A DNA stretch of 5,182 bases, from IMG/VR virus record IMGVR_UViG_2534681941_000045; one strand, given 5' to 3'. The notes under the pieces are model-generated. The model was not told the origin of the DNA. It saw nothing but the letters and a program-made list of their open reading frames with translations, and ran no database searches. The number at the start of each line of letters is the position of its first letter. The stretch's first letter is position 1. This document shows positions 3,939 to 4,448 of the stretch, piece after piece. Both the position numbers and the translations under genes were made by a program. This stretch comes from a virus (Duplodnaviria; Heunggongvirae; Uroviricota; Caudoviricetes).

Positions 3939-4448
3939 ATGAAAAAAGCCATAGCATATATGCGATTTTCATCACCAGGTCAGATGTCTGGCGACTCATT
4001 AAACCGACAGAGAAGACTTATTGCTGAATGGTTAAAGGTAAATAGTGATTATTATCTTGATACCATAACATATGAAGATTTAGGATTAAGTGCATTCAAA
4101 GGAAAGCATGCACAATCAGGAGCTTTTTCGGAATTTTTAGATGCTATAGAGCATGGTTATATATTGCCAGGAACTACATTGTTAGTTGAAAGTCTGGACA
4201 GACTTTCAAGAGAAAAAGTCGGTGAAGCGATTGAACGTCTGAAATTGATTTTGAATCACGGTATTGATGTTATAACTCTTTGCGACAATACAGTCTATAA
4301 TATTGACTCTTTGAATGAGCCATATTCATTAATAAAAGCCATACTTATAGCACAAAGGGCAAATGAAGAAAGCGAGATAAAGTCAAGTCGGGTTAAATTA
4401 TCATGGAAGAAAAACGGCAGGATGCACTGGAATCAGGTACGATTATGA
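3939..4448 (+). CDS. ybcK: Large serine recombinase, N-terminal catalytic (resolvase-type) domain; 5' fragment of a frameshifted gene
   Basis: 169-aa ORF with the serine-recombinase active-site motif near the N-terminus (AYMRFSSPGQ, catalytic Ser in a Y-x-R-x-S context) and a resolvase-like core (LLVESLDRLSR). Shine-Dalgarno aggtg upstream. The frame terminates at 4446-4448, but the protein continues in the +2 frame (next feature). Symbol is from context (recombinase next to emrE in DLP12-type prophages). Confidence 0.85.
   Translation: MKKAIAYMRFSSPGQMSGDSLNRQRRLIAEWLKVNSDYYLDTITYEDLGLSAFKGKHAQSGAFSEFLDAIEHGYILPGTTLLVESLDRLSREKVGEAIERLKLILNHGIDVITLCDNTVYNIDSLNEPYSLIKAILIAQRANEESEIKSSRVKLSWKKNGRMHWNQVRL

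Follow-up and report, generated by a model that had tools for sequence, protein, structure and literature searches.

The ybcK gene of Escherichia coli DEC4B (O157:H7) carries three lesions, i.e., two 1-base deletions and one IS insertion. We analyzed a stretch of 5,182 nucleotides, referred to here as the window, in which an earlier note had recognized a serine recombinase gene interrupted by a frameshift at a run of five A residues. This frameshift, between the frame that starts at 3939 and the one that starts at 4403, is indeed present at positions 4410 to 4414, where the references read six A residues. A second 1-base deletion, at 4961, and an IS629/IS1203 element, which begins at 5006, had been missed. 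We are looking at the ordinary decay of a known gene, and the frameshift that was originally spotted is probably an assembly error.

The ybcK locus in prophage Sp8

Contig AIFL01000027.1 from the draft assembly of DEC4B (GCA_000249395.2) contains the window as an exact substring. The window makes up the final 5.2 kb of this contig, with a single base left beyond it. It matched E. coli O157:H7 chromosomes and, according to the annotated regions of strains Sakai, EDL933, and F7386, the locus is the left end of the defective lambdoid prophage Sp8, adjoining icd. The gene order is tyrosine int, xis, an N-terminally truncated O, P, ren, emrE, a small ylcJ-like ORF, and ybcK. The prophage's own integrase is the Sp8 tyrosine integrase, identified as an ORF and in the annotated references (1 to 1143, minus strand). 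Together with xis it occupies the attachment end, and ybcK is distinct from it. Identified in the same manner, an intact emrE gene (3362 to 3694, plus strand), which codes for an SMR efflux pump, lies directly upstream of ybcK. The emrE-ylcJ-ybcK module is also found in the K-12 prophage DLP12.

Between 1133 and 1560, int and xis abut the O gene, which RefSeq marks as lacking its N terminus. The lambdoid recombination, immunity, and early-regulatory region is wholly missing from Sp8, and the prophage is therefore defective. Inside O (1719 to 1835), we observed five iteron-like direct repeats, TTACC(C/T)(G/A)AA(T/A)(C/G)AGGTAA, with a spacing of 19 to 24 bp, followed by an A-rich ACAAAAGACAA duplication. 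Repeats inside O are the usual lambdoid origin-within-O arrangement. At 3362 to 3881, emrE and a ylcJ-like ORF of 40 to 42 amino acids (PF23688) sit between ren and ybcK, as they do in DLP12 of K-12, and the emrE-ylcJ-ybcK block resembles an inserted module of cargo genes.

In the annotated Sakai, EDL933, and F7386 sequences, ybcK is described as "phage recombinase" or "recombinase family protein," and its intact form has 508 codons. In the window, we found two ORFs in different frames, 3939 to 4448 (169 amino acids) and 4403 to 4969 (188 amino acids), both of which are open across 4403 to 4448. The former, on the plus strand, is the 5′ fragment of ybcK and encodes the serine-recombinase (Resolvase) catalytic domain. 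Its 169-amino-acid product matches GenBank entry EHU99244.1, [quoted passage not shown] The correct frame is lost at codon 158, and the fragment ends in a 12-codon out-of-frame tail, NGRMHWNQVRL plus a stop. The middle of ybcK follows in a second frame (4415 to 4960, plus strand) and specifies the Recombinase domain together with the beginning of the zinc ribbon, as judged by Pfam and base comparison. The ATG at 4403, with which the second-frame ORF starts, is a chance ATG. By translation and base comparison, the gene continues in a third frame (4963 to 5005, plus strand; SIKRDLVDYNIINE) up to the IS junction, which lies inside codon 357 of 508.

The earlier note had assigned a catalytic N-terminal domain to the first ORF and recombinase and zinc-ribbon domains to the second. 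The Pfam searches agreed, with the qualification that the zinc ribbon is truncated. The ORF at 3939 to 4448 matched Resolvase (PF00239) with an E value of 6.4e-19 over residues 4 to 157; the corresponding match in the intact ortholog had an E value of 5e-19 over residues 4 to 161. The ORF at 4403 to 4969 matched Recombinase (PF07508) with an E value of 4.4e-15. In the intact ortholog, PF07508 covers residues 191 to 284, and PF13408 (Zn_ribbon_recom) covers residues 302 to 357. The shortened zinc ribbon of the window scored 23.1 bits against Zn_ribbon_recom, below the cutoff of 25.3.

Compared to Sakai, EDL933, and F7386, the window showed no substitutions in 5,182 bases and exactly two 1-base gaps, both in ybcK. 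Once one A was added at 4410 and one C at 4961, the sequence was exactly that of the first 1,071 bases of Sakai ECs_1615, with 100% identity. Closed O157:H7 genomes differ from the window at these two gaps only, one of which lies in the A tract, and the two-frame pattern is therefore not a product of chance. Base comparison placed the second gap at 4961 (plus strand), where a single C is found instead of CC (GGCATC in the window versus GGCCATC in the references). The loss of this C causes the premature stop at 4967 to 4969. Consequently, the end of the second ORF at 4969 is a product of the second deletion and not where the gene naturally ends. It had also been proposed that one extra A would give a continuous protein. 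This was correct locally, since an additional A in the tract restores ...SWKKKRQDALESG...; it did not hold farther downstream, where the second frameshift at 4961 and the IS truncation at 5006 follow.

IS629/IS1203 in codon 357

The left end of IS629/IS1203, an element of the IS3 family, occupies positions 5006 to 5182 on the plus strand. It was recognized from the sequence, with the terminal inverted repeat TGAACCGCCCCGG... and the ATG of orfA at 5060, and from the junction in strain F7386. Immediately before it, GAAT (5002 to 5005) is the left copy of a 4-bp target-site duplication, both junctions being visible in F7386. The window holds the first 177 bases of the IS, and the contig ends 177 to 178 bases into the element. 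Strain F7386 shares this junction exactly, and there the element measures 1,310 bp and has TGAACCGCCCCGG inverted repeats and the GAAT duplication; RefSeq labels it [quoted passage not shown] The insertion splits ybcK inside codon 357, and the last 151 codons are lost.

The same junction was present in 6 of 5,426 complete genomes (F7386, 147, 148, 149, Balcarce_14.2, and 9.1_Anguil). Since six closed genomes share it, the insertion is real, and it is an inherited marker of a small sublineage. All six read A6 and CC at the sites of the two deletions. The 1,310-bp element entered codon 357 and thereby truly killed ybcK in DEC4B. Owing to the insertion, the gene is nonfunctional in this strain whether the deletions are real or not.

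The insertion resembles other IS629/IS1203 polymorphisms of O157:H7, in which a sublineage has lost the function of a prophage gene to an IS3-family element flanked by a 4-bp duplication. Compared to other IS629 insertions in O157:H7, it had nothing unusual other than its rarity. A published study (PMC9943667) describes IS629 as a main source of gene inactivation in O157 and its excision in O157 as being promoted by the IEE protein. In O157:H7 strain TR01, we observed a 4-bp deletion in ybcK, AATGAA[TTGC]TTTTT, exactly at the IS629 site (L019, around position 3079, equivalent to 5006 to 5009 of the window). This gene is annotated as "frameshifted"; Ns are present nearby, and the assembly quality is uncertain. 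The deletion looks like the footprint of an imprecise excision of IS629.

Origin of the two 1-base deletions

The A5 tract (4410 to 4414, plus strand), which falls in YbcK codons K157 to K159, had correctly been described as the only homopolymer of the overlap from 4403 to 4448, where no other base occurs three or more times in succession. The closed O157:H7 and K-12 references that we examined carry A6, AAGAAAAAACGG, at this position. The earlier note had reasoned that intact orthologs with the same A5 tract would place the shift elsewhere; the orthologs carry A6, and its claim survives. Among complete genomes carrying this stretch, A5 was found in none of 1,399, and A7 was likewise found in none (approximately 1,400), so that the length variation suggested for the tract was absent from this population. 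A 70-mer containing A6 was matched exactly in 1,010 of 1,402 complete genomes. Those of the other genomes that were sampled span exactly 70 bases, which indicates substitutions and no change in length. A single C at the position of 4961 was seen in 0 of 1,418 complete genomes. The A6-to-A5 change is private to DEC4B relative to complete genomes, including the six with the same IS junction, and the CC-to-C change is private to the DEC4B draft.

When draft and read-level assemblies, a far larger set, were considered, 13 contigs encoded the exact A5 product and 5 more encoded a 154-amino-acid version with the same tail. Most of the other assemblies with A5 displayed the signature of sequencing errors, namely, further 1-base indels. 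One A5 carrier (L004) had 13 homopolymer deletions in 10 kb, and three others (L006, L010, and L011) each had further 1-base indels. Five K-12 DLP12-type contigs from different samples (L005, L008, L009, L012, and L013) differed from MG1655 by A6-to-A5 alone over 1.5 to 8.7 kb, with one extra mismatch in L009. This change was detected in no complete RefSeq K-12 genome. It may be an allele that truly exists in some laboratory lineage of K-12 or in a contaminant. Judging from the K-12-type contigs, A6-to-A5 probably also occurs as a genuine mutation somewhere.

For DEC4B, we consider it fairly probable that A6-to-A5 and CC-to-C arose as errors in base calling of the consensus or in assembly of the draft, near the contig end, and not as biological events. 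Over 11,069 bases aligned between the contig and Sakai, there were no substitutions, and the only differences were these two 1-base gaps. The A5 tract and position 4961 lie 773 and 222 bases, respectively, from the contig end, which stops inside a multicopy IS. With uniform placement, the chance that both deletions fall within the last 775 of 11,245 bases is (775/11245)^2, or about 0.5%. This points to a local cause, either a consensus of low quality toward the end of the contig or weakened selection on a gene that is already dead. In mutation accumulation in wild-type E. coli, substitutions exceed indels by approximately 10:1 per site; therefore, if both indels were real, their occurrence within 550 bases of an 11-kb stretch free of substitutions would be very unexpected. 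We take the drafts of the DEC collection to date from about 2011-12 and to rely partly on 454 pyrosequencing. Homopolymers are undercalled by 454 pyrosequencing. Against an artifact, the CC-to-C change is unlike the classic long-homopolymer error, and the A5 tract, at 773 bases from the contig end, is beyond the reach of a simple low-coverage end effect. Moreover, the gene that contains both deletions is the only one on the contig that was already nonfunctional, and real mutations would be tolerated in it; A6-to-A5 is found as a difference from MG1655 on the K-12-type contigs (n = 5).

Alternatively, both deletions could be genuine and private to DEC4B, having arisen by slippage in a gene already neutralized by the IS, or with A6-to-A5 inactivating the gene first. 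We regard this as possible but rather doubtful. Both deletions do lie inside the pseudogene that the IS disrupted, no change is found in the 10.4 kb of functional genes that flank it, and the internal A6 is the most slippage-prone internal site of ybcK (it is the longest internal homopolymer and tied for the longest overall, the only other A6 being at codons 2 and 3). In addition, the five K-12-type contigs suggest that A5 probably arises for real at low frequency. However, the six closed genomes that share the IS insertion lack both deletions, as do the approximately 1,400 genomes carrying the gene. A count of two indels within 550 bases and zero substitutions within 11 kb reverses the mutational spectrum that would be expected, unless the strain were a mismatch-repair mutator, and paired 1-base deletions fit the pattern of an error-prone assembly. 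We also considered a diverged second copy of ybcK as the donor of the deletions, by collapse or gene conversion, and rejected it, as A5 and the single C are found nowhere in complete genomes. It appears improbable to us that the internal A6 is a recurrent mutational hot spot, with independent ybcK knockouts in DEC4B, another O157 strain, a K-12 laboratory lineage, and a divergent E. coli. If this were true, it would hint at relaxed selection or at selection against YbcK activity.

We give hardly any credence to the A tract being a phase-variable contingency switch or to the two ORFs being joined by programmed −1 frameshifting or transcriptional slippage. To pass from the 3939 frame into the 4403 frame, a −1 shift is needed, G_AAA_AAC is weakly slippery, and A5 recurs on about 18 public contigs from several backgrounds. 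Nevertheless, the tract is fixed at A6, with no complete genome carrying A5 or A7, and two intact 508-amino-acid alleles are each found on at least 1,000 contigs, versus about 18 contigs for the A5 products. Furthermore, with the second frameshift (4961) and the IS truncation (5006) downstream, slippage would yield no functional protein, and for the same reason restoration of the A tract cannot switch ybcK on in DEC4B. What ybcK shares with the contingency loci of Neisseria, Haemophilus, and Campylobacter is a coding sequence that is frameshifted at a mononucleotide run. In contrast to those loci, the ybcK tract is short (6 bases) and invariant across approximately 1,400 genomes, with no on/off polymorphism, and the DEC4B gene is damaged elsewhere as well. 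Known contingency tracts are longer than this run of 6. Phase variation was rejected since the tract length is invariant in the population and the gene is broken again downstream. Programmed −1 frameshifting and transcriptional slippage were rejected because G_AAA_AAC is not a canonical X_XXY_YYZ site, the tract has too few bases, and the gene is a single 508-codon ORF in the orthologs. Of the three explanations offered by the earlier note, sequencing error and inactivating mutation stay live. The on/off switch is dropped, given that A6 is fixed, the tract is 6 bases long, and its repair does not rescue the gene.

Relation to known recombinases and significance

The gene in the window is the same gene as that for YbcK in K-12 prophage DLP12 (YBCK_ECOLI) and as ECs_1615 of Sakai Sp8, and the order ren, emrE, ylcJ, ybcK is shared. 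The two reference genes are intact, with 508 codons, whereas the DEC4B gene lies in three frames and is cut at codon 357. The intact ortholog displays the domain order Resolvase, Recombinase, Zn_ribbon_recom, and a long C-terminal extension, which is the order in large serine recombinases such as the phiC31, Bxb1, and TP901-1 integrases and those of the XisF and SpoIVCA type. Compared to these enzymes, YbcK is very divergent. It scored 47 bits against the XisF model, far below the cutoff of 375, and phmmer against the sequences of solved structures found no serine recombinase at an E value of ≤1. A BLASTP comparison to an approximate sequence of gamma-delta resolvase was not significant (E value of 31). 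Residues 6 to 15 read AYMRFSSPGQ, to be compared with the catalytic motif Y-x-R-x-S-[ST]-x-x-Q, and the Pfam match begins at profile position 1. The assignment of YbcK as a putative large serine recombinase rests on the Pfam profiles. A search of the literature retrieved no study that treats YbcK as a serine recombinase and, to our knowledge, no recombination activity of YbcK has been reported.

In older drafts, short-homopolymer frameshifts near contig ends need read support before they are called as pseudogenization or phase variation, and one proposed repair may mask more lesions downstream. The biological weight of the present case is small: ybcK is a known, uncharacterized gene of a defective prophage, and IS629 knockouts are routine in O157:H7.
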